From NCBI GenBank assembly GCA_947085765.1, contig CAMTXZ010000031.1, positions 30,283 through 94,282 on the forward strand: DNA of 64,000 bases, given 5' to 3'. Of this stretch, positions 715 to 52,520 are shown piece by piece (within the stretch, counting starts at the first letter, position 1; each line of letters begins with the position of its first letter). Source of the DNA: an uncultured Chromatiaceae bacterium. Its GTDB lineage: Bacteria; Pseudomonadota; Gammaproteobacteria; Tenderiales; Tenderiaceae. The position numbers and the translations under genes are program-made. Under the pieces are notes generated by a model. That model was not told the DNA's origin. It ran no database searches and saw nothing but the letters and a program-made list of their open reading frames with translations.

Positions 715-2685
715 ATGAAAAGCCTCTGGGACGATAACGAAGCCAAACAGTACAGCGACGAGCTCGGCCTGCGTGTCTACAGCTCACGGCTATTAGGGCG
801 TGATGCCACCCTGGTACTGCATGGTGGTGGTAATACCTCCGTCAAAATCACGCAAAAAAATATCGTCGGCGAAGAGCAGCAACTGCTGTGTGTCAAAGGC
901 AGCGGCTGGGATCTGGAGACCATCGACCGCCCCGGCTTTCCCGCCGTCAAACTCGACCACCTGATCAAACTGGCAAAACTCGAATCACTCAGCGATCCGC
1001 AGATGGTCAACGAACTGCGCACCCACATGACCGATGCTGGCGCGCCGACACCCTCAGTCGAAGCGATCCTGCACGCCACCCTGCCCTACAAGTTTGTCGA
1101 TCACACCCACGCCGATGCGCTGGTCACCATCACCAACACACCGGGCGGACTCGAAAAAATCAAACAGATCTACGGCGACACAATTGTTATCGTGCCTTAC
1201 ATCATGCCCGGCTTCGACCTCGCCCGCCTCTGCGCCATCGAGTTCGAGAAGCAGCACAACGCCAATACCATCGGCATGGTGCTGATGAACCACGGCATCT
1301 TCTCGTTTGCCGACGATGCCAAGAGCTCTTACGAACGTATGATCCAACTGGTCGGCATGGCCGAGGAGTACATCAAGTCACAGAGCGCCTGGGAGTTGGA
1401 TTACGACACAGCTGCCAACAACAGTGCCGATGCTCTTGCACTCGCCGCACTGCGCCGCGACATTTCAAAGGCCGCTGGTTTCCCGGTAGTACTGCGCAGC
1501 CAACGTGATGCCAAGGCGATGAGCTTCTGCAACCGTTCAGACGTTGCCAAGGTTGCCCAGCAAGGCCCCGCTACCCCTGATCATGTGATTCGCACTAAAC
1601 GACTGCCACAGATTGGCCGTGATGTTGCGGGTTATGTCGAGACATACAAAAACTATTTCAATCAACACGCCTCCGATGCACGTGAACCGAAGACGATGGT
1701 CGATCCCGCACCGCGTGTCATACTCGACAAAACACTGGGCATGATCAGCATTGGCAAGAGCGCCAAAGAGGCGCAGATTGTCACCGACATCTACGACCAC
1801 ACCATGGATATCATCGCCCGCGCCGAGTTGATGGGCGGCTGGCAGGCGCTCTCGGCAAAACATATCTTCGACATGGAGTACTGGGATCTGGAACAGGCCA
1901 AACTGCGCAAGGGCGGCAGCGCACCGCAGTTCCAGGGCGAGATCGCACTCATCACCGGTGCCGCCTCTGGCATCGGTAAGGCGTGTGTCGAGTCGATGCT
2001 CAAACGCGGCGCTGCCGTGATCGCCATCGACATCGATGCCAAGATCGAAACGCTCTTCAAACGCGCCGACTATCTCGGCATCACCTGTGATGTGGCCGAC
2101 GAAACAACACTGATCGCCGCGATCAAACAGGGCGTCGCCCACTTCGGCGGGCTCGACATGGTCGTGCTCAACGCCGGCATCTTCCCCGGCGGCAAACGCA
2201 TCGACAATCTCAGCAGTGACGAGTGGCGCAAGGTGATGCAAATCAACCTCGACCCCAACCTGGTGTTGATGCGCGAGACCTATCCATTCCTGAAACTGGC
2301 ACCGAAAGGTGGCCGCGTCGTCGCCATGGGTTCCAAAAACGTCCCCGCCCCCGGCCCCGGCGCAGCCGCCTACTCCGCCACCAAAGCCGCGCTGACCCAG
2401 ATGACCCGCATCGCCGCGCTCGAATGGGGAGCAGAGAACATCCGCATCAACACACTGCATCCCGATTGTGTATTTGATACCGGCATCTGGACCGACGAAG
2501 TACTCGCTGCACGCGCCAAACACTACGGTCTGACAGTGGAGCAGTACAAACGCAAGAATATATTGAAGACCGAAGTCACCAGCCATGATGTAGCCGAACT
2601 TACCTGCGAACTCTGCGGACCGCTATTCGCAAAAACCACAGCTGCGCAGATCCCCATCGACGGTGGCAATGAGAGGGTGATTTAA
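715..2685 (+). CDS. Bifunctional class II aldolase (rhamnulose-1-phosphate aldolase-like) / short-chain dehydrogenase
   Basis: N-terminal class II aldolase/adducin-like domain (HGGGNTSVK, HTHAD) fused to an SDR domain (TGAASGIGKA, YSATKAA). The ORF track begins at 346 but overlaps the upstream gene; ATG at 715 (MKSLWDD) or 673 is the likely start. Confidence 0.8.
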   Translation: MKSLWDDNEAKQYSDELGLRVYSSRLLGRDATLVLHGGGNTSVKITQKNIVGEEQQLLCVKGSGWDLETIDRPGFPAVKLDHLIKLAKLESLSDPQMVNELRTHMTDAGAPTPSVEAILHATLPYKFVDHTHADALVTITNTPGGLEKIKQIYGDTIVIVPYIMPGFDLARLCAIEFEKQHNANTIGMVLMNHGIFSFADDAKSSYERMIQLVGMAEEYIKSQSAWELDYDTAANNSADALALAALRRDISKAAGFPVVLRSQRDAKAMSFCNRSDVAKVAQQGPATPDHVIRTKRLPQIGRDVAGYVETYKNYFNQHASDAREPKTMVDPAPRVILDKTLGMISIGKSAKEAQIVTDIYDHTMDIIARAELMGGWQALSAKHIFDMEYWDLEQAKLRKGGSAPQFQGEIALITGAASGIGKACVESMLKRGAAVIAIDIDAKIETLFKRADYLGITCDVADETTLIAAIKQGVAHFGGLDMVVLNAGIFPGGKRIDNLSSDEWRKVMQINLDPNLVLMRETYPFLKLAPKGGRVVAMGSKNVPAPGPGAAAYSATKAALTQMTRIAALEWGAENIRINTLHPDCVFDTGIWTDEVLAARAKHYGLTVEQYKRKNILKTEVTSHDVAELTCELCGPLFAKTTAAQIPIDGGNERVI

Positions 2686-2783
2686 GCGACCACACCATCG
2701 AATCAATGGGCGGGCTCATTCTCACATTCGTAGGGTGCGTATAATCGTGGCAGGGGAACCAATCCTTTAAGGGACTTGTATTG

Positions 2784-4193
2784 ATGCTGAAGCACCTATT
2801 TCTTAGACCAGAAATGCTTGGTCGCCTGATATTTTCTAAACCAGACGGACAGTCCTATTACGTTCAAGCAACTTCTGAGCAGAAAACCAGACGCGCGCTC
2901 CCCGAGGAGATCGTTCGACAATTGTTCGTGCTGTCTCTACTTCATGATTATAAATACCCGGAGGGGTTAATCCGCTTGGAATTACCTATCCAGATGGGTA
3001 GAGAAAAAAAGCGTGCTGATATTGCTGTATTGGAGGCTAATGGCAATGTCAAAATTATCATAGAGGTCAAGGTAGAGCATGACAAAGACTCTATGCCGCA
3101 GCTTATGTCATACATGGCAATTACGGGGGCTTTGTATGGAGCAATCGTTTCCAGTGCTGAAATTATTTGCGTCAAACGGCTATCAACCCAGGATATAGTA
3201 CCGATAAGTGACTTACCTATTTTCTTGGGAAATGACACCTTGTCTGAGCCTGAAATACAGGCGAAGCACAATCCACAACCAAGTTTTCCAGGCACCCCGT
3301 GCGCCTCCATTGAAGTAGAAGGCTTTGAGCGAAATACTCCAACCCACGCCAAGATCACAATCAAAGGGCACACACTTCAACTCTCTAACGTAGAGCTAGA
3401 GTCATACAAAAAACTTAGGCAGAAGTTTCTGATAGCAGGTGTAGCCCTTAACCCGAACGTCAAACAGGCGGAGTGGTTTGATATGTTTAGTCAGCTGCTA
3501 GAGACCACGCCGATAAATGCCATGCCTATTTTAGTGGAAAGTGACACCTCGTCTGAGCCTGAAATACAGACGGATTACAATCCACAACCAAGTCTGCCAG
3601 GCACTCCGTGCGCCTCCATTGAAGTAGAAGGCTTTGAGCGAAATACCCCAACCCACGCCAAGATCACAATCAAAGGTCACACACTTCAACTCTCCAACGT
3701 AGAGCTAGAGTCATACAAAAAACTTAGACAGAAGTTTTTGATAGCGGGCGCGGCCCTTAACCCGAATGTCAAACAGGCAGAGTGGTTTGAGATATTTAGT
3801 CAGCTGCTAGAGCATACACCGATTACTTATCTGTCCAGTCCACAGCGGGGTAGTGCTGTTGATGAGAAGGCACTGGCAGCTATCGAGGAAGCATTGGGGC
3901 AAGGGCAGCCTGGATTCTCGGGTGGTTGGATCAGTTCATTTGCGCTGGATAGGTTGCTGGATAGACTCAAGATCAGTGTTCCGCGCACTAATCGCAAAAA
4001 ATTATTAAACGCGCTTGGCTATGAGTGGCACCCTAACCTCCCTGATGGGCGTTTGAACAACCCGATCAATGACCCTTCTGGCGATTTCGGCAGACCGAGA
4101 TTGTTTATTTCTAAGGAGCATATGACTGCAAGATGGGTTAATGGTAGTGATATCGCCAGGGCGTATCTTGCAGATCAAGTTTCGGGGAGTTGA
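2784..4193 (+). CDS. HsdR_N-like (PD-(D/E)xK nuclease-fold) domain protein with internally duplicated C-terminal domain
   Basis: N-terminal segment ADIAVLEANGNVKIIIEVK resembles the type I restriction HsdR N-terminal / PD-(D/E)xK motif (D...EVK). RBS-like aaggga sits 8 nt upstream of ATG 2784. The gene lies in an AT-rich island. Confidence 0.55.
   Translation: MLKHLFLRPEMLGRLIFSKPDGQSYYVQATSEQKTRRALPEEIVRQLFVLSLLHDYKYPEGLIRLELPIQMGREKKRADIAVLEANGNVKIIIEVKVEHDKDSMPQLMSYMAITGALYGAIVSSAEIICVKRLSTQDIVPISDLPIFLGNDTLSEPEIQAKHNPQPSFPGTPCASIEVEGFERNTPTHAKITIKGHTLQLSNVELESYKKLRQKFLIAGVALNPNVKQAEWFDMFSQLLETTPINAMPILVESDTSSEPEIQTDYNPQPSLPGTPCASIEVEGFERNTPTHAKITIKGHTLQLSNVELESYKKLRQKFLIAGAALNPNVKQAEWFEIFSQLLEHTPITYLSSPQRGSAVDEKALAAIEEALGQGQPGFSGGWISSFALDRLLDRLKISVPRTNRKKLLNALGYEWHPNLPDGRLNNPINDPSGDFGRPRLFISKEHMTARWVNGSDIARAYLADQVSGS
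3234..3851. repeat. Tandem direct repeat, 2 x 309 bp (about 93% identical), inside CDS 2784-4193
   Basis: Copy 1 begins gacaccttgtctgagcctgaaatacag at 3234; copy 2 begins gacacctcgtctgagcctgaaatacag at 3543. The protein shows two near-identical 103-aa units (…PGTPCASIEVEGFERNTPTHAKITIKGHTLQLSNVELESYKKLRQKFLIAG…). Confidence 0.9.
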
Positions 4194-4322
4194 GGTTGGT
4201 GCCAATAACGTCAATGAGACAAACCACGTTACCGGCTTGTCTCCGAGCAGCAAGTAGGCTGGACTTGGAGTTTTTCGAAAAAACTGGGGCATTTGATTGA
4301 ACAATATCTATGGGTGGTGTTT

Positions 4323-5003
4323 ATGACTGAATTGAAAGATCGAATTGAAGATGTTCTTTCCTTGGTGGAACAGAATTTTGAATTTTTCCATGTTGGGATG
4401 TTTTTTGATGATTACGCAAAGCGTAATGATCTCTCATCAAAGGTTGTACCAATCGAACTATCTCTTGAAGATGAAAAAGTGTTTAGGCCGGGTGATATAG
4501 TCAAAGATTCATTGCGTGACTATTTTATAAAAGACAGATCGACCGTCTTTGGTTACATGGTCGCATGGAATGCATTTCGTGGAATCGGCATGGCAATGAA
4601 GGAGGGACTGCAAGACAATCCAAACCTTAAGGATTTCATAAAGAAAAAGCTCGGGAACAGATATGAACATTATCACGCCATTTTGAGTTTTATTAGAAAT
4701 GTGTTGTCGCACAACATACACGACGAAACACAGCTGAAAGAACAAAACTACAAAGATACCCGCACATATTTTGTGAGGGATGTTTGTTCAACAGGAGTTG
4801 CAACACTTTCCATTAACTATGCCGATGATTTTCCAGGAACGAATCTTCCAAGTGGCTATGGATTCAATCTTGAAGTTAATTTCAATTTATTAAATCCTGG
4901 AAAACGTTTTATTGAGGTTATTTCTGAATCGCATTTATATATGTTTTCTGAACTTTGCTTCATTTTAGTTAAAGCATTTCGGAACGAAGCGCAGCCAAGC
5001 TGA
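4323..5003 (+). CDS. Hypothetical protein with HEPN-like Rx4H motif (candidate Abi/RNase-type effector)
   Basis: ORF 4293-5003 (TTG at 4293, ATG at 4323). Motifs NRYEHYH and FIRNVLSHN (R-x4-H) flanked by hydrophobic residues, at about nt 4691-4711. AT-rich codon usage unlike flanking core genes. Confidence 0.4.
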   Translation: MTELKDRIEDVLSLVEQNFEFFHVGMFFDDYAKRNDLSSKVVPIELSLEDEKVFRPGDIVKDSLRDYFIKDRSTVFGYMVAWNAFRGIGMAMKEGLQDNPNLKDFIKKKLGNRYEHYHAILSFIRNVLSHNIHDETQLKEQNYKDTRTYFVRDVCSTGVATLSINYADDFPGTNLPSGYGFNLEVNFNLLNPGKRFIEVISESHLYMFSELCFILVKAFRNEAQPS

Positions 5004-5107
5004 GGTGCATTCCATGCACCAATGACAACTGAAGCATAGACCATCGAATACAGAGATTGATGCCGGATATTTTTTGGATCGCAAAGGTAAAAATTGGAGC
5101 TGATCTT

Positions 5108-5341
5108 ATGAACATCAACCTGAACCTAGAGGCTTTGGAAGCGGAGGTTCTTAAACTCTCCTCTGCTGATCGTTCCCATCTTTTAGAGCGGCTCATTGGC
5201 AGCCTTGATGCAGATGCTGCAATCGATGCGGCATGGGAACAAGAGGCCGAGCGCCGTCAGATGGATATCGAATCCGGGAAGGTCACCCTGGTTTCTGGTG
5301 AAGAGGCGATGCCCCGTTTAAGAGAGAAGTTGAAACGGTGA
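5108..5341 (+). CDS. Type II toxin-antitoxin antitoxin, putative addiction module component (TIGR02574 family)
   Basis: MNINLNLEALEAEVLKLSSADRSHLLERLIGSLD… matches the conserved N-terminus of the TIGR02574 antitoxin family. Its stop overlaps the GTG start of the downstream toxin (GTGA). Confidence 0.7.
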   Translation: MNINLNLEALEAEVLKLSSADRSHLLERLIGSLDADAAIDAAWEQEAERRQMDIESGKVTLVSGEEAMPRLREKLKR

Positions 5342-5631
5342 CTTTTTCACTGCACCCGGAGGCAGAAAGAGACATTGCCGATGCAATTGATTTTTATCTT
5401 CGGAATGCAGGCTTGATTGTCGCCGAGAGGTTTTTGGATGAGTTTTACAGGGCGGCCCGCTTTCTCGTAGAGAATCCTGAGGCTGGTACACCATCGTTGC
5501 GTGATCGCCGCACGTTTCCTCTCCATATTTTTCCGTATTCAATTGTGTATGTACCATCACGTGGAGAGATCTGTATTCTAGTCGTCAGACATCAGCGCCG
5601 TCAGCCAAGTTACGGTGCAGAACGACAGTAA
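5338..5631 (+). CDS. Type II toxin RelE/ParE family (plasmid stabilization system protein)
   Basis: 97 aa. MTFSLHPEAERDIADAIDFY…VYVP…ILVVRHQRR is the RelE/ParE fold pattern. Translationally coupled to the upstream antitoxin. Confidence 0.75.
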   Translation: MTFSLHPEAERDIADAIDFYLRNAGLIVAERFLDEFYRAARFLVENPEAGTPSLRDRRTFPLHIFPYSIVYVPSRGEICILVVRHQRRQPSYGAERQ

Positions 5632-5732
5632 CGAGGGCATTTGAGTAAATCCACCCAACATTAATAGGCTGTGTCCGCATGAGCGAGCATGGCAATAAAC
5701 AAAACACTTAAACAACGGAAACTAAAAACACC

Positions 5733-7403
<1,671 letters not shown>

Positions 7404-47848: not shown

Positions 47849-48757
47849 TTACAGCTTCAATGTAAAATTAACCTCGACACCACTAGCAGGCCTATCAACA
47901 GGCACCTCACTATACCCTGAAGAAACACGCCAAACTGGTAGGTTAGGATATAACTCTTTTCCTAAAATGACAGAAAGTACTGCAAGTATTTTGGGACCCA
48001 ATGGAATAATCAGTGGTCGTGAGAATTTATTTAGTGATTGAACCAATGACTTTAAATCTAAATATGTAGAATATGGCTGACATACATCATAGAAAAACAC
48101 ATTATCACTTGATATTGAATCTAATAGGTCTTTGTTATTATCTACAACATCGGTTTCAAATTTGGTAACAGGGCTTTTAGGAATAAAGGTATAAATAAAA
48201 CCTGAATCCAAGAAGTTAGCAACCCCAAGGGCCTTGCTCTTTTCATAACCAAGACCGAATATCACCGAAGTAGGAAGAGATGGATCACCAATGGATCCTC
48301 CAAGCTGAGAAGTTATCTCACAAAGATACTTTATTGGCGTATCTTCATTTGGCGGCGGGATATAATCAGACAAGGTGTACACAACACTTAAAGTGGAATG
48401 TTCAGGGAGCGAATCCATTAAGCTGCAAATAATACAAGCCAACCTATGTCGACTCATAACAGTAATGTCTAACAACACATTTACTGGCCCATCAAAATTT
48501 TTTCCGAATAAAAATCCATCAACATGCCTGCTAACAGACTCATCACCATGCTCTATAATATTAGCTTTAGACTCCAAGTATTTGGATTTATTTACTTGGT
48601 AAGAAAATTTATCGGTATTAATATCATAACCAATGACCAATAATTCTGAGCAATCACTGCCATATTTATCAAATGCAGATATAGCTCTAGACTCAAAGCC
48701 AAGCCCAAAAATTGCCAAATCAAACTCCCCACCAATGAATGATTTTAATATTTTCAT
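47849..48757 (-). CDS. Hypothetical protein, last gene of a four-gene island operon (no family recognised)
   Basis: 302-aa ORF, AT-rich codon usage. The start overlaps the upstream gene stop (48754-48757). Confidence 0.6.
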   Translation of the reverse strand: MKILKSFIGGEFDLAIFGLGFESRAISAFDKYGSDCSELLVIGYDINTDKFSYQVNKSKYLESKANIIEHGDESVSRHVDGFLFGKNFDGPVNVLLDITVMSRHRLACIICSLMDSLPEHSTLSVVYTLSDYIPPPNEDTPIKYLCEITSQLGGSIGDPSLPTSVIFGLGYEKSKALGVANFLDSGFIYTFIPKSPVTKFETDVVDNNKDLLDSISSDNVFFYDVCQPYSTYLDLKSLVQSLNKFSRPLIIPLGPKILAVLSVILGKELYPNLPVWRVSSGYSEVPVDRPASGVEVNFTLKL

Positions 48758-50571
48758 AGCAAGTCTATTTGTTTATTGTTTTCGGCTAGGTCAACGACCT
48801 TAATCACAGAAGACCGTGGATTACTCCTCTTAAGCAGATCAACAAGTTCAATTTCTCTAGGTTTGGTAGTTAATAAGCCAAAACGATGTGAAAATAAGTA
48901 TGACAACCTGCACCGTGCCTTTCTAAGGTCCTTGAAATCATGAAATGGCTCATCAGAATTTTTAACAATAATCAACGCGCCGGCATTCAATGCAAAGCCA
49001 ACAGCGGCTAAATAGCCGATATTTTCATCTTTTTTAAAGGTAAGTGTCCCTTTTGGCTCAGGACAAAACTGTGCCCCTACAATTTCTTCTTTAAAAGATG
49101 TTGCGATAGTTTCAATCAGATCGAAAATCGTATTGTATGAGTTATCATCTGAAGAAATAGCAATTGTTCTTAACAAAGCATTGTAAGACCTGAATGTATC
49201 ATTTAAACATTCAAGCTGAGAGGTAATTGGAATCGTTTTCTTTTCCTTCACTATAGATATGAACTTATTAATAAGTCCGATAAGCATCCTAGGATTATAT
49301 TCCATTGCCTTGCATAAATTCGAAAAACCAACATAACTATCAGGGGGTCTCTTTCGGCTAGCTAATCCACTTTCTTTCCTGTAGTAATTTCTAAGATGGG
49401 CTACAAATTTAATCTTTCTAACTGTTGGCCCCTTGTTTTTATCGCCATAATTGCGGATGTCGTCAATATTTATTCTTTGATCATCCAGGTACTCTTTAAA
49501 GGTCAAATCTTTTTCTGAAAGCTCTCTAAAAGTGTCTTCTACGCTAAAAGGCTTAGGCTCTTCGAAGTAACTCTCAATATCATCGTTCAAATTGTTTTTC
49601 TTGAAAATGTTAGAGCAAAGCTTTTTAGAGAACTCAAGGCCCATTTTGTCAGAATTACCGGTGAGGTTAATAAAGGAGAGATCTTGATTGCTCATCGAGC
49701 TATCTGAGCACTTAGTCACCTCTAAATTCTTATGGTATGGCGATAATGATAATTTAAAAATAACATCTTCTGGCCCACCTCGCATCGAATCCACAAGAGG
49801 CTGGATAATCTCTTCAGGCGCCAGTTCTAATTCATCGAATAAAAAAGACCACTTATGACCGCACTCATTAAAATAAGAATTTACTATTCTAGTACTTGCC
49901 CCAAGAATAGATGATATTCCACCGGTGACAATGTCCGGTTTATTAATATGGCCTATAGTTTTTCTATCAAGCGACGAAGTTATATAGTCTGAAACTTCCT
50001 TTTTCTTATTTGTTACGGAAACCTCTAGACTTCGCAATGAACAGATCTTAGGACTCACATGCCACAACTGTGCTAACTCACCAACCAATTCAGCCTCATC
50101 AACCTTTTTTATGACTACAGACTTAAAATTATTCTTCTTCCTTGGTGCCTGAGCAACGCGATATCCAATAGTGGAAGCCATTCTTTCAAGTGTGTGGTAG
50201 ACAAAAATCGACTCAAGTAAACGTCCTCCTTCCTCTATGCTTCCTACTTTATCTTTTATAATATCAAACTGCGTTTTCCAAAACCGATCGGTAGGAATGA
50301 AAACACCAGAAAAAGATATTGAGTTCCTGAATTTCGGGGCACTTGAATCATTCCAGATTTCCAACGCCTCAACTTGAAGCATCCGCATCAGAGTGGTTTT
50401 TCCACTACCTCTAGGTCCAATCATTATTGTATGATTGGATGAAGCTAAATTCTGGAAGTGCTCACTAACGATAAAAGAATCGCACAGCTCTTGAGTTGTA
50501 AGCGTTCGAGCATTAAATGATTCATATATTGATGGTGCTTTTTCAAACATTACGCTTACCCACCTCAACAA
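48754..50571 (-). CDS. Large P-loop NTPase (Walker A GPRGSGKTT, candidate Walker B LFDELE), third gene of island operon
   Basis: 605 aa. Walker A at residues 52-59. An hhhhDE motif about 190 aa downstream suggests ABC/RecF-like rather than AAA+ spacing. Long C-terminal region of unknown function. It overlaps the upstream gene by 29 nt. Confidence 0.7.
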   Translation of the reverse strand: MLRWVSVMFEKAPSIYESFNARTLTTQELCDSFIVSEHFQNLASSNHTIMIGPRGSGKTTLMRMLQVEALEIWNDSSAPKFRNSISFSGVFIPTDRFWKTQFDIIKDKVGSIEEGGRLLESIFVYHTLERMASTIGYRVAQAPRKKNNFKSVVIKKVDEAELVGELAQLWHVSPKICSLRSLEVSVTNKKKEVSDYITSSLDRKTIGHINKPDIVTGGISSILGASTRIVNSYFNECGHKWSFLFDELELAPEEIIQPLVDSMRGGPEDVIFKLSLSPYHKNLEVTKCSDSSMSNQDLSFINLTGNSDKMGLEFSKKLCSNIFKKNNLNDDIESYFEEPKPFSVEDTFRELSEKDLTFKEYLDDQRINIDDIRNYGDKNKGPTVRKIKFVAHLRNYYRKESGLASRKRPPDSYVGFSNLCKAMEYNPRMLIGLINKFISIVKEKKTIPITSQLECLNDTFRSYNALLRTIAISSDDNSYNTIFDLIETIATSFKEEIVGAQFCPEPKGTLTFKKDENIGYLAAVGFALNAGALIIVKNSDEPFHDFKDLRKARCRLSYLFSHRFGLLTTKPREIELVDLLKRSNPRSSVIKVVDLAENNKQIDLL

Positions 50572-51733
50572 TTACATTGCACTTATGGTCTACAGACAAT
50601 CCATTTTCTTCAAGCTCTCTCACAAGACTATTGAAATCATGCGGCGTGAAGTTGGCTGCCAGGTCATGAAATTGAGATAAGTCTTGTTCATTTAGGTAAG
50701 GATTGCTTTCAGATATTAAGGCAGTAATTTTGTCAGCTACGGCCTTTGGTGTTATGGCACTCCCAAATCCACTTTTAGCAGGAAGGTTTGATGATGTTGA
50801 CTCCCCCCATTTTAACCCTCTAAGGCGTTCATGTGTCTCAAGTGTTCCAACTGCTTTTCCTTCAGAAATACATTTATCCAAATCAATCTCAATTATGTAA
50901 AATTGATTTGAAGTACGGTCTTCAATTCCGCCATGCAATCTTGCTGAAATGCTTCCGGATGAAAATATTACATATGGATTCATGCCTGGCGCAGGAGCAT
51001 ATGTAACATCTGCAAAATGCTTGTGCCCATGAATTACTAGCCACGGCCCTTTGTTTGCACCATGTAATTTATGGAGTAGATATTGTCCACCTTGCATGCA
51101 CTCATTATCTTCTGACCTGTCTACATGTTCCATTTTTTGTGGGTGATGGTGACATAAAAGAATATTGATTGGCTTTTTCACAAAAAATTGTGAAGAAATG
51201 AATTTACTAATTTGATCGGCAACGTCACTGGAAATTCGACCATGTGCTCCTTCATCATTAAAGCCATGATATGCGCTGGTATTTAATGATATGGCGTTGT
51301 AGCTTAGGATCTTTCCTTCTGAATGACACCAATGCCAAGCCCAAAAATGTGTATTTTTTTCACTGCAATCGAATGGGAAGCTAGGTTGAATAAACTGTAA
51401 TTGGTGCTTGGGATCATAAATGCTTTCTGTTCTCGACTGGTGATCATGATTTCCTGGCACACACAAGAGCTCAGGAATATTCAACTCATCTTTTACTCTT
51501 CTGACAAAATTCCATCCAGCAATAAAACAATCTTGTTCAGCTTGATTTGCTATATCACCAGCACAAATTAGAACGTCAATATCATGATCTAGTTTTTTCA
51601 CGTAATTTATGAATGCATTTCCATATTCGCTTTCGCCATTGTTAAAATAAAGATGTGAGTCTGTTTTTTTTGACGAGTCAACAATTGCGTGAAGATCGGA
51701 AATTACCAGCAGCCTTAATTTGTTATTATTCAT
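50543..51733 (-). CDS. Calcineurin-like metallophosphoesterase (Mre11/SbcD-like motif set), second gene of island operon
   Basis: 396 aa. Motifs ISDLHA (I), CAGDIAN (II), VPGNHDH (III), CHHHP (IV), IHGHKH (V). C-terminal extension of about 120 aa. Confidence 0.8.
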   Translation of the reverse strand: MNNNKLRLLVISDLHAIVDSSKKTDSHLYFNNGESEYGNAFINYVKKLDHDIDVLICAGDIANQAEQDCFIAGWNFVRRVKDELNIPELLCVPGNHDHQSRTESIYDPKHQLQFIQPSFPFDCSEKNTHFWAWHWCHSEGKILSYNAISLNTSAYHGFNDEGAHGRISSDVADQISKFISSQFFVKKPINILLCHHHPQKMEHVDRSEDNECMQGGQYLLHKLHGANKGPWLVIHGHKHFADVTYAPAPGMNPYVIFSSGSISARLHGGIEDRTSNQFYIIEIDLDKCISEGKAVGTLETHERLRGLKWGESTSSNLPAKSGFGSAITPKAVADKITALISESNPYLNEQDLSQFHDLAANFTPHDFNSLVRELEENGLSVDHKCNVIVEVGKRNV

Positions 51734-52520
51734 AATTTTTCACTAAGATCTCTTCAACCTCATTCCATGTGGTTTTGAAGCCTGAGATATGACGCTTCAC
51801 TGATAATGTTTGGACTGTAAAGTCTTTTGATAATAATTCGATGACGTCTTTGCAGGCACGATATGAGAACAGGAATTTAACACCTTTGCTATTCAAGTCA
51901 TACAAGCCTTTAAAGAGGACTGGTAAATTTTCAATATTAAAACTCCCAGGACCATATTCGCCAGTAAACTTCTCTGACTTTGAATACGGTGGGTCTATAT
52001 ATACAAAATCCCCTTCCTTTAGTTTTCGCAAGGTTTCAGTATAATCAGCAACAATTATCTCAGTGTTATAAAGCTTTTTTCTTGCCAAGTTAAACACATC
52101 TTGGGAGGGAAATCCGCCAGTTCTAGAGCCTCTTGGCACATTAAATTTACCTGCTTTATTTGTGCGATACACACCATTAAAACAGTAACGATTAAGATAT
52201 AAGAAACGCACCGCACGTTCTGCTTTACTCAGCGCATCCGGATCAAGCCCTCTTATCCTATAATATTCATCATCAGTATCAGGAATTTGGATCAGACTCT
52301 CCCGAATATTTTGATTGACCTTTATCTCACTCAAAGCATTAATCAATTCAAAGTTTATATCTGACAATAAAGCCTCGTAGACATTCACCTCAAAAAACAG
52401 ACATGCCGAACCGCAGAATGGCTCAACATAACGTTCGAAAGTTTTTGGAATACTTTGTGTTAACACAGGCAGAAGCTTTCGTTTACTACCTGCCCATCTT
52501 ATTAACGGTTTACTTTGCAA
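51726..52520 (-). CDS. Dam-family (D12 class) DNA N6-adenine methyltransferase, first gene of island operon
   Basis: 264 aa. IRWAGSKRKLLPVL, EPFCGSACLFF (motif I), YIDPPY (motif IV DPPY). Confidence 0.85.
   Translation of the reverse strand: MQSKPLIRWAGSKRKLLPVLTQSIPKTFERYVEPFCGSACLFFEVNVYEALLSDINFELINALSEIKVNQNIRESLIQIPDTDDEYYRIRGLDPDALSKAERAVRFLYLNRYCFNGVYRTNKAGKFNVPRGSRTGGFPSQDVFNLARKKLYNTEIIVADYTETLRKLKEGDFVYIDPPYSKSEKFTGEYGPGSFNIENLPVLFKGLYDLNSKGVKFLFSYRACKDVIELLSKDFTVQTLSVKRHISGFKTTWNEVEEILVKNYE

Follow-up and report, generated by a model that had tools for sequence, protein, structure and literature searches.

FokI has a non-specific cleavage domain linked to several recognition subdomains of the helix-turn-helix or winged-helix type. 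A layout of primase, superfamily 3 (SF3) helicase and C-terminal winged-helix origin-binding domain is known for the P4 alpha protein and for pRN1 ORF904 (PMC2777425). For the HEPN superfamily, the position of the Rx4-6H motif and the presence of a companion acidic residue in the preceding helix have been described (PMC3710099). Here, we compare with these systems an AT-rich islet that lies between an aldolase/SDR gene and ettA in a metagenome-assembled genome (MAG) of Candidatus Tenderia (Gammaproteobacteria), in a 64,000 nt stretch of DNA (contig CAMTXZ010000031.1, positions 30,283–94,282) that is referred to below as the window. Four plus-strand genes are found within 2784–5631, an open reading frame (ORF1) for a protein with a restriction-type nuclease head, a second (ORF2) for a HEPN-like protein, and a toxin–antitoxin pair. 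We regard it as fairly probable that the islet grew as three autonomous cassettes collected at one permissive site between genes, that its ParE module stabilises it and that it has spread between Tenderia lineages by recombination.

Composition, insertion and probable exchange of the islet

The islet, its genes and the tract shared with a second Tenderia genome are as follows.

2686–5660, strand not applicable: AT-rich inserted islet, from the aldolase/SDR stop (2685) to the ettA upstream region, marked by a GC trough and by empty sites in relatives
2784–4193, plus strand: ORF1, 469 amino acids (aa) from ATG, or 470 aa from a TTG one codon upstream (2781)
4323–5003, plus strand: ORF2, 226 aa from ATG; a TTG at 4293 would give 236 aa
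5109–5341, plus strand: antitoxin gene, 77 aa, Unstab_antitox / TIGR02574
5338–5631, plus strand: toxin gene, 97 aa, ParE/RelE superfamily, GTG start
2251–5617, strand not applicable: near-identity tract, 1 mismatch in 3367 nt relative to a second Candidatus Tenderia MAG (L023, JANOSY010000046.1)

An initial annotation of this DNA had described the region as AT-rich with its genes all in the same orientation, and the reading frames and base composition confirm this. The content of guanine plus cytosine (GC) was 0.37–0.50 over 2800–5400, compared with 0.57–0.62 in the flanking aldolase/SDR and ettA genes, and when the window was divided into 1 kb bins only two such troughs were seen, one of them the islet. 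The composition is mosaic, with a GC of 0.47 for ORF1, 0.37 for ORF2, 0.52 for the antitoxin gene and 0.49 for the toxin gene. The right edge of the islet is approximate and may fall anywhere in 5632–5707. Homologues of ORF1 begin at the ATG, not at the upstream TTG, and the database copy of ORF2 (P0001) is 226 aa long. The intergenic spacers in the islet are 98–129 nt, and ORF1 and ORF2 neither overlap nor show any sign of translational coupling.

The same arrangement is present in GCA_031416075.1. In six related species-level MAGs (L011, L012, L013, L014, L025 and L026) the islet was absent, and the distance from the aldolase/SDR stop to ettA was 17–490 nt. One of these empty sites (L026) is flanked by genes whose products share 93% (aldolase/SDR) and 96% (EttA) protein identity with those in the window. 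Because the six relatives have a direct aldolase/SDR–ettA junction, the segment from 2686 to approximately 5660 is a presence/absence polymorphism and not part of the core genome. The comparison of the ettA-upstream locus across relatives, which the initial annotation had proposed as a check on its accessory island, thus bears the island out, and the alternative of a conserved, core-like region fails.

A pairwise mismatch profile of the two Tenderia MAGs, generated using MAFFT, was used to delimit the near-identity tract. Outside the tract the two MAGs differ by 9–62 mismatches per 250 nt, i.e. 5–25% divergence. At the protein level, ORF1, ORF2 and the antitoxin are 100% identical between the two, compared with 94.8% for the aldolase/SDR protein and 85.5% for the GGDEF-EAL protein encoded by the next gene downstream. 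The tract begins 435 nt inside the aldolase/SDR gene, and on the right it runs out within the final codons of the toxin gene. As the tract is near-identical amid diverged flanks and reaches into the aldolase/SDR gene, this suggests that the islet was recently exchanged between diverged Tenderia lineages by homologous recombination. With flanks that differ by this much, it would clearly exemplify recent, gene-specific transfer within a lineage that is uncultured and related to electroautotrophs.

When the borders of the Tenderia islet were searched for terminal direct or inverted repeats and for a target duplication, only short repeats at chance level were found, one of which (D8) falls where the identity tract ends. 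An 18 nt direct repeat, CAGCCAAG(C/T)T(G/A)(A/C)GGTGCA, has one copy at the 3′ end of ORF2 (4992–5009) and another at that of the ParE gene (5602–5619). The latter falls at the right end of the identity tract, and the repeat may be due to chance. No recombinase, transposase or helicase was found among the islet genes. A promoter and terminator scan gave fewer matches than were obtained with shuffled sequences and no sigma-70-like promoter on the plus strand, and is uninformative. An integron array or a cluster of attC sites lacking integron-integrases (CALIN) was considered for the window and rejected. In 2500–5900 there was no RYYYAAC...GTTRRRY pair with a hairpin, either strict or with one mismatch, and the four islet spacers folded no better than shuffles (z from −0.35 to +1.4), compared with a z of −2.2 for the attC site in L100 used as a control.

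The association between ORF1 and ORF2 was examined using loci that contain relatives of either. A relative of ORF1 was present in only one of 85 ORF2-family loci, the Tenderia locus itself, and no relative of ORF2 was present in any of the 11 loci with an ORF1 relative or an ORF1-type C-terminal domain, although the sample of ORF1-family contexts is small, at seven independent loci. The relatives of ORF1 sit in other small low-GC insertions, where they are found next to PemK, RES-Xre and HicAB toxin–antitoxin pairs or at the edge of a block of unannotated genes or a mobile element. In one case (L180, 6001–8033), a homologue that is 51% identical to ORF1 lies between nadC and glcD-like genes and is followed, with a 4 nt overlap, by a gene whose DUF2971 product has a match to PDC-S31 (1e-22), a phage-defence candidate in PADLOC. 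Because the ORF1 and ORF2 families are unlinked elsewhere, each being solo or with other neighbours, and because their GC contents are distinct, the cassettes are probably independent.

The initial annotation had suggested a single small abortive-infection or restriction-like module. The four genes would then form one coordinated system, with the nuclease as sensor or effector, the HEPN-like protein as a second effector and the toxin–antitoxin pair as regulator. The shared orientation and short spacers are in keeping with this, as are the inheritance and exchange of the genes as one block between two Tenderia lineages, and combinations of nuclease, HEPN and toxin–antitoxin genes are common in defence islands (PMC3710099). 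However, the two families did not occur together outside Tenderia, the GC contents differ from cassette to cassette, no PADLOC system was recognised and the lack of overlap or coupling between ORF1 and ORF2 also counts against a single system. We consider this reading very improbable and favour the accretion of separate cassettes.

The toxin–antitoxin pair was identified as a tightly coupled TIGR02574 antitoxin and RelE/ParE toxin in the initial annotation, and the family searches agree. The antitoxin matched Unstab_antitox (1.7e-13, 50.8 bits; cut-off 23.3) and TIGR02574 (6.8e-09, 35.6 bits; cut-off 31.9), the toxin matched ParE_toxin (2.1e-13, 51 bits; cut-off 23), and the GTG start of the toxin gene overlaps the TGA of the antitoxin gene by 4 nt. 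By these sequence matches, the pair belongs to the ParDE type and is a routine module.

ORF1 and its relatives

Three features were located within ORF1.

2904–3221, plus strand: HSDR_N_2 (PF13588) PD-(D/E)xK nuclease domain, aa 41–146, with putative catalytic residues E41, D79, E94 and K96
3201–3812, plus strand: 309 bp in-frame tandem duplication (TRF, 2.0 copies, 90% identity), which doubles a 103 aa unit of linker plus beta3-alpha3 module
3855–4178, plus strand: C-terminal winged-helix-like domain, aa 358–465, with the order alpha-beta-alpha-alpha-beta-beta, homologous to the C-terminus of phage prim-pol/DUF5906 proteins

The N-terminal segment of ORF1 matched the whole of the Pfam HSDR_N_2 profile (positions 1–110) with an E-value of 1.5e-21 and 77 bits (cut-off 25). 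The four putative catalytic residues are invariant in all 27 full-length homologues, the last three lying in the motif ADIAVLEANGNVKIIIEVK at aa 78–96, and the head has a restriction-endonuclease-like alpha/beta fold. The HsdR_N/PD-(D/E)xK nuclease motif that the initial annotation had seen at this position is therefore upheld, and its statement that neither large protein had a confident family assignment is incorrect for the N-terminus of ORF1. In PADLOC, ORF1 matched only the N-terminal ~125 residues of the MTase_I and REase_MTase_IIG models. When plasmids were searched with the head using tblastn, the matches were at the N-termini of genes annotated as N-6 DNA methylase, and in viral contigs the head had no match. 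No helicase/translocase or methyltransferase domain was found in ORF1, and neither these domains nor hsdM or hsdS were found in the neighbouring genes.

The AlphaFold2 model of ORF1 has a mean predicted local distance difference test score (pLDDT) of 84.7 and consists of four well-folded blocks with disordered linkers between them. The blocks are the PD-(D/E)xK head, two beta3-alpha3 modules and the C-terminal winged-helix domain. The two modules are the product of the tandem duplication, a recent event, which the initial annotation does not mention. Between the two copies of the repeat, synonymous divergence (dS) is 0.245 and non-synonymous divergence (dN) is 0.081, giving a dN/dS of 0.33. 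There are just 4 residue differences in the folded part, and nearly all of the amino acid changes fall in the disordered linker. Because of the low dN/dS and the almost unchanged folded part, both copies have been kept by purifying selection. The homologues of ORF1 mostly have one copy of the module, and at least one (P0047) has two diverged copies.

The C-terminal domain, also missed in the initial annotation, is of phage origin. In a BLASTP comparison, ORF1 matched P0066 (3e-37, 44% identity over a 169-residue alignment), and the conservation is mostly in the final ~105 residues. P0066 is a 793 aa prim-pol/DUF5906 primase-helicase encoded in a phage-like replication module (TetR, primase, Dam, SSB). 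Relatives of the domain were recovered by tblastn against phage genomes and viral contigs; a word-indexed protein search with this domain alone gave no match. The same type of tail ends a 796 aa primase-helicase on a 57 kb IMG/VR contig and a ‘DNA primase’/DUF5906 protein in 83 sequenced phages, mostly Klebsiella jedunaviruses, where it is at the extreme 3′ end of the coding sequence. Identity between the ORF1 tail and its counterparts in sequenced and metagenomic phages is 37–49%. Because an HSDR_N_2 head is combined with a C-terminus of the primase-helicase type, ORF1 is chimeric, its nuclease head being of the restriction type and its tail that of a phage replication protein.

Further fold matches of ORF1 were to SCCmec Cch, the SaPI Rep helicase and the winged-helix domains of RAP30, MCM8 (MCM8-WH), RFX5 and TFIIIC tau138. 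Weak matches to YjhX_toxin, WH_GTF3C1_N and a PHROG primase family were taken as hints only. Three of the primase-helicases with an ORF1-type tail were located in their contexts, at 1622–4003 in L089, 5967–8357 in L184 and 2099–4456 in L185 (phage KpV52). In L089 and L184, a DNA methyltransferase gene comes after the primase gene; in L185, small hypothetical genes take that place. The GC content of L089 (0.55) is similar to that of the Tenderia genome, and a 70 nt stretch of it is 81% identical at the nucleotide level to the region encoding the C-terminal domain of ORF1.

An alternative would make ORF1, in place of a defence nuclease, the protein that moves or replicates a small mobile element, for instance a nickase that recognises origins or an endonuclease of the homing type, with the genes downstream as variable cargo. 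Its relatives are often the first gene of a small insertion that lies between housekeeping genes, and are followed by different cargo, namely the DUF2971 gene between nadC and glcD in L180 and toxin–antitoxin genes in L091 and L182, with a further relative at the edge of a block in L008, and its C-terminal domain comes from replication-initiator proteins. However, terminal repeats, target duplications, a recombinase, a transposase and a helicase were all lacking in the islet, and the nuclease head is closest to the heads of restriction enzymes. The extension of the identity tract 435 nt into the flanking gene also points to homologous recombination rather than site-specific insertion by an element-encoded enzyme. 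This reading is improbable, and a restriction-type nuclease that has acquired a phage-type tail is preferred.

ORF2 and the contexts of its family

One feature was located within ORF2.

4695–4712, plus strand: predicted HEPN Rx4H motif RNVLSH (R125...H130), invariant in 38 homologues

Searches of Pfam, NCBIfam, PADLOC and PHROGs with ORF2 gave no match, including when thresholds were permissive. The family is rare, with 38 clusters recovered in the word-indexed search and 144 representatives at 50% identity among 1.84 billion proteins. All 38 close members carry the sequence ...SFIRNVLSHN..., the pattern for the family being RNxLSH, and in an alignment of 74 members extending down to 15% identity only E94, R125 and H130 were conserved at 90% or above. 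The initial annotation had referred to Rx4H motifs in this protein. Two such strings are present, of which RNVLSH is conserved in the family and RYEHYH is not.

The AlphaFold2 model of ORF2 is confident (pLDDT 92.9). In it, a long helix terminates in the motif and passes into a loop, with E94 in the preceding helix. This placement matches the published description of HEPN proteins and supports the HEPN-like assignment. The best structural matches were HEPN toxins of HepT/MntA systems (7ae2 and 5yep), and the search also listed kanamycin nucleotidyltransferase, LAS1L/Las1, the integron-cassette HEPN protein 3jrt, Csm6, AF0298 and Csx1. Below threshold, members of the family matched HEPN_Apea (0.0093), pEK499_p136 (0.018, two members), KEN/Ribonuc_2-5A (0.016) and Ymh (0.1, two members), and the only Pfam families that were matched by more than one divergent member, or repeatedly over scans, were HEPN families. 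We conclude that ORF2 probably belongs to the HEPN superfamily. It founds an as yet unclassified HEPN-like family, outside every curated HEPN family. The invariant motif, its position at a helix end and the weak matches to the HEPN clan thus speak for the original HEPN claim, which the Foldseek search of the PDB did not reinforce (see below).

Two clades of the ORF2 family were distinguished by context. Clade A, the largest, is found in low-GC contigs that include the complete genome of Sulfurospirillum sp. 1612 and was for this reason called the Campylobacterota type. Its genes have native GC, and their synteny with panE, amtB-glnK and metH is conserved. A recurrent operon beside amtB-glnK has the order HlyD-like adaptor, molybdenum bis(pyranopterin guanine dinucleotide) (Mo-bisPGD) oxidoreductase-like protein, HEPN-like protein, with overlapping stop and start codons (2483–5663 in L104, and also in L108, L110, L096, L093 and ~33 more). 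The Mo-bisPGD oxidoreductase-like protein has an Fdh-alpha-like N-terminus and scored far below any equivalog cut-off. Genes resembling selB and selA, recognised by their N-terminal sequence alone, are upstream instead in 6–8 clade A loci. The association with defence islands implied by the initial annotation is accordingly not specific, as the family is not confined to such islands and its largest clade is in a conserved operon of housekeeping type.

Clade B, which contains the Tenderia ORF2, has a GC content that is always well under that of the host and is found in unrelated contexts. In one case, a solo gene with a GC of 0.30 is inserted between ribE and ribBA, with flanks of 0.42–0.45. 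Further solo relatives of ORF2 were found in L103, L106, L144 and L186, and in the first three of these the GC is 0.36–0.38, compared with 0.50–0.60 around them. Among the clade B neighbours, as read from protein sequence and not from a family search, were toxin–antitoxin genes, a tyrosine recombinase and a group II intron reverse transcriptase. In three loci (L100, L105 and L099), a relative that is 53% identical to ORF2 lies 185 nt downstream of an integron integrase gene (TIGR02249, 3.5e-96). In L100 (1303–3020), the integrase gene and the cassette are transcribed in the same direction, GTTAGGC/GTTAGGT cores are upstream of the cassette, and downstream of it is an 80 nt attC-like hairpin at 2941–3020 (GCCTAAC...GTTATGC, z −2.2). 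Because of the adjacent IntI, the upstream cores and the downstream hairpin, the ORF2 relative in L100 and L105 is an integron gene cassette. The integrase reading frame in L099 seems to have been replaced at its N-terminus by unrelated sequence.

This finding bears on whether the islet is the remnant of a decayed cassette array (CALIN), or functionless junk DNA. In favour of such a remnant, a true integron cassette carries an ORF2 relative elsewhere, the genes of the islet are compact, on the same strand and promoterless-looking, with no plus-strand sigma-70-like promoter found, and toxin–antitoxin cassettes of the ParE type are typical of integron arrays (PMC3710099). However, all four reading frames are intact, the catalytic residues have been kept, the repeats of ORF1 are under purifying selection and the block has recently moved intact. 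We regard decay as extremely improbable.

A second alternative concerns the ORF2 family as a whole. It may have a housekeeping or accessory function tied to the Mo-bisPGD oxidoreductase-like enzyme or to the selenoprotein machinery, for example in RNA or nucleotide binding, maturation or regulation, in which case the Tenderia copy would be a stray transfer and possibly functionless. The native GC and conserved synteny of the Campylobacterota-type genes, the 38 of 77 loci in which the gene is behind the Mo-oxidoreductase-like gene and the selB/selA-like genes in 6–8 loci are consistent with this possibility. In addition, no locus showed an antitoxin-like partner, and searches of viral contigs and plasmids did not turn up the family. 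In contrast, the clade that includes the Tenderia copy is clearly mobile, with a low GC relative to every host, an integron cassette among its members, and toxin–antitoxin, recombinase and group II intron neighbours. Conservation across the family is also confined to the Rx4H dyad and the glutamate, which argues for a catalytic site rather than a binding scaffold. A housekeeping role is unlikely for the Tenderia ORF2, and the reading as a mobile HEPN-like gene is retained.

With two lifestyles, one as a mobile cassette and the other as the conserved operon partner of a Mo-oxidoreductase-like gene, the family could show the domestication of toxin-type RNase folds. It would add to the HEPN superfamily a rare family whose conservation is limited to the Rx4H dyad and a single glutamate.

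Proposed function and comparison with known systems

In the explanation that we favour, the islet of ~3 kb would have been acquired horizontally, the cassettes having accumulated at a hot spot between the aldolase/SDR gene and ettA in the Candidatus Tenderia lineage. ORF1 would be a stand-alone DNA endonuclease, with a head of the type I/IIG type joined by flexible linkers to the modules and the winged-helix domain. In phage primase-helicases, the corresponding position is taken by the domain that binds the origin or DNA. The tail domains may bind DNA, possibly at sites resembling phage replication origins or on replicating phage DNA, and present it to the head, and the enzyme would work without a methyltransferase. 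ORF2 would be a solo, dimeric, metal-independent RNase that uses the R125/H130 dyad and E94, and may act as a growth-arresting or abortive-infection-type effector. Protection against phage by either gene is a prediction of this scheme, and the ParE toxin and TIGR02574-type antitoxin would stabilise the islet by post-segregational addiction.

Several observations weigh against parts of this explanation. A HEPN RNase expressed constitutively on its own, or an endonuclease lacking a methylase, would be expected to be toxic, and no partner that might confer immunity or regulation was seen. The islet proteins matched no catalogued system in PADLOC-DB 2.0, where ORF2, the antitoxin and the toxin had no matches at all, and relatives of ORF1 and ORF2 are absent or nearly absent from IMG/VR and from plasmids, the ORF2 family having no match in either viral contigs or plasmids. 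No curated HEPN model in Pfam reached threshold with the ORF2 family, a Foldseek search of the ORF2 model against the PDB gave nothing significant (best E-value 1.1, with HEPN entries only at ranks 8 and 30), and sequence and profile searches of PDB sequences with ORF2 turned up neither a HEPN protein nor anything else of relevance. The clade A gene is directly downstream of, and overlaps, the Mo-bisPGD oxidoreductase-like gene in 38 of 77 loci, an arrangement that looks like housekeeping and not like defence. Finally, the tract is known from MAG contigs, and the assembly or binning of mixed strains could produce such near-identity.

A bolder version is that the ORF1 family represents an undescribed single-gene anti-phage or anti-satellite nuclease, which would be guided to phage replication origins or replisomes by the captured C-terminal domain of a phage primase-helicase with no need for marking by methylation, and that ORF2 represents a new mobile, integron-cassette-borne family of HEPN RNases. 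The duplicated middle module of ORF1 might then tune the spacing or valency of targets. We regard this version as rather unlikely.

Taken overall, the islet is an ordinary collection of toxin–antitoxin and defence-like genes at a chromosomal hot spot, and of the two large proteins ORF1 falls, and ORF2 probably falls, in a known nuclease superfamily. The architecture of ORF1 is the notable part, as a restriction-enzyme head is joined to a domain that is otherwise found only at the C-termini of phage primase-helicases. This suggests a nuclease, of the host or of a mobile element, that recognises invaders via a domain taken from the invaders' own replication initiators, which would be a testable and uncatalogued principle of targeting.

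The other AT-rich island in the window is on the minus strand at 47849–52520, with a GC of 0.36–0.42. One of its genes is for a D12-class N6-adenine DNA methyltransferase and another for a calcineurin-like phosphoesterase that carries a wHTH-Calcineurin_assc domain. The island also encodes an ORC-CDC6-like ATPase (2.7e-97) and a 302 aa protein of unknown family, and looks like an NTPase-based conflict or defence system.

When the components of the ettA-upstream islet are set beside known systems, the toxin–antitoxin pair is the same as in ParDE-type type II modules with TIGR02574 antitoxins, in its families, in having the antitoxin gene first and in its 4 nt overlap, and shows nothing unusual. 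In its AlphaFold2 model, ORF2 resembles the HEPN toxins of HepT/MntA systems in that a putative core helix ends in the Rx4H motif and an acidic residue lies in the helix before it. Unlike in HEPN/MNT systems, there is no minimal nucleotidyltransferase gene in the islet or beside any of the ORF2 homologues examined. Compared with the integron-cassette HEPN protein Vpc_cass2 (3jrt), ORF2 differs in length and has no detectable sequence relationship, and compared with single-gene HEPN defence proteins such as ApeA, the family differs in that its Campylobacterota clade is chromosomal and syntenic.

The head of ORF1 has the same PD-(D/E)xK fold, the same family and the same conserved E..D..ExK residues as type I, IIG and IIL enzymes (BpuSI 3s1s, DrdV 7lo5, HsdR 3h1t/2w00), and outside its own family ORF1 is closest in sequence to the N-terminal parts of N-6 DNA methylase fusions. 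Unlike the HsdR subunits of type I systems, ORF1 has no superfamily 2 (SF2) translocase domain and no hsdM or hsdS neighbours. Unlike type IIG and IIL enzymes, it has neither an N6_Mtase/Eco57I methyltransferase domain nor a target-recognition domain, and the head is joined instead to modules of winged-helix type. In its layout ORF1 may be likened, by analogy, to the FokI-type (type IIS) architecture; the order of the domains is reversed relative to FokI, the nuclease is of another subfamily and there is no cognate methylase. The closest parallel for the tail is found in primase–SF3 helicase proteins (P4 alpha 1ka8, pRN1 ORF904 and DUF5906/NrS-1-like primases), with aa 358–465 of ORF1 homologous to their last ~110 residues.

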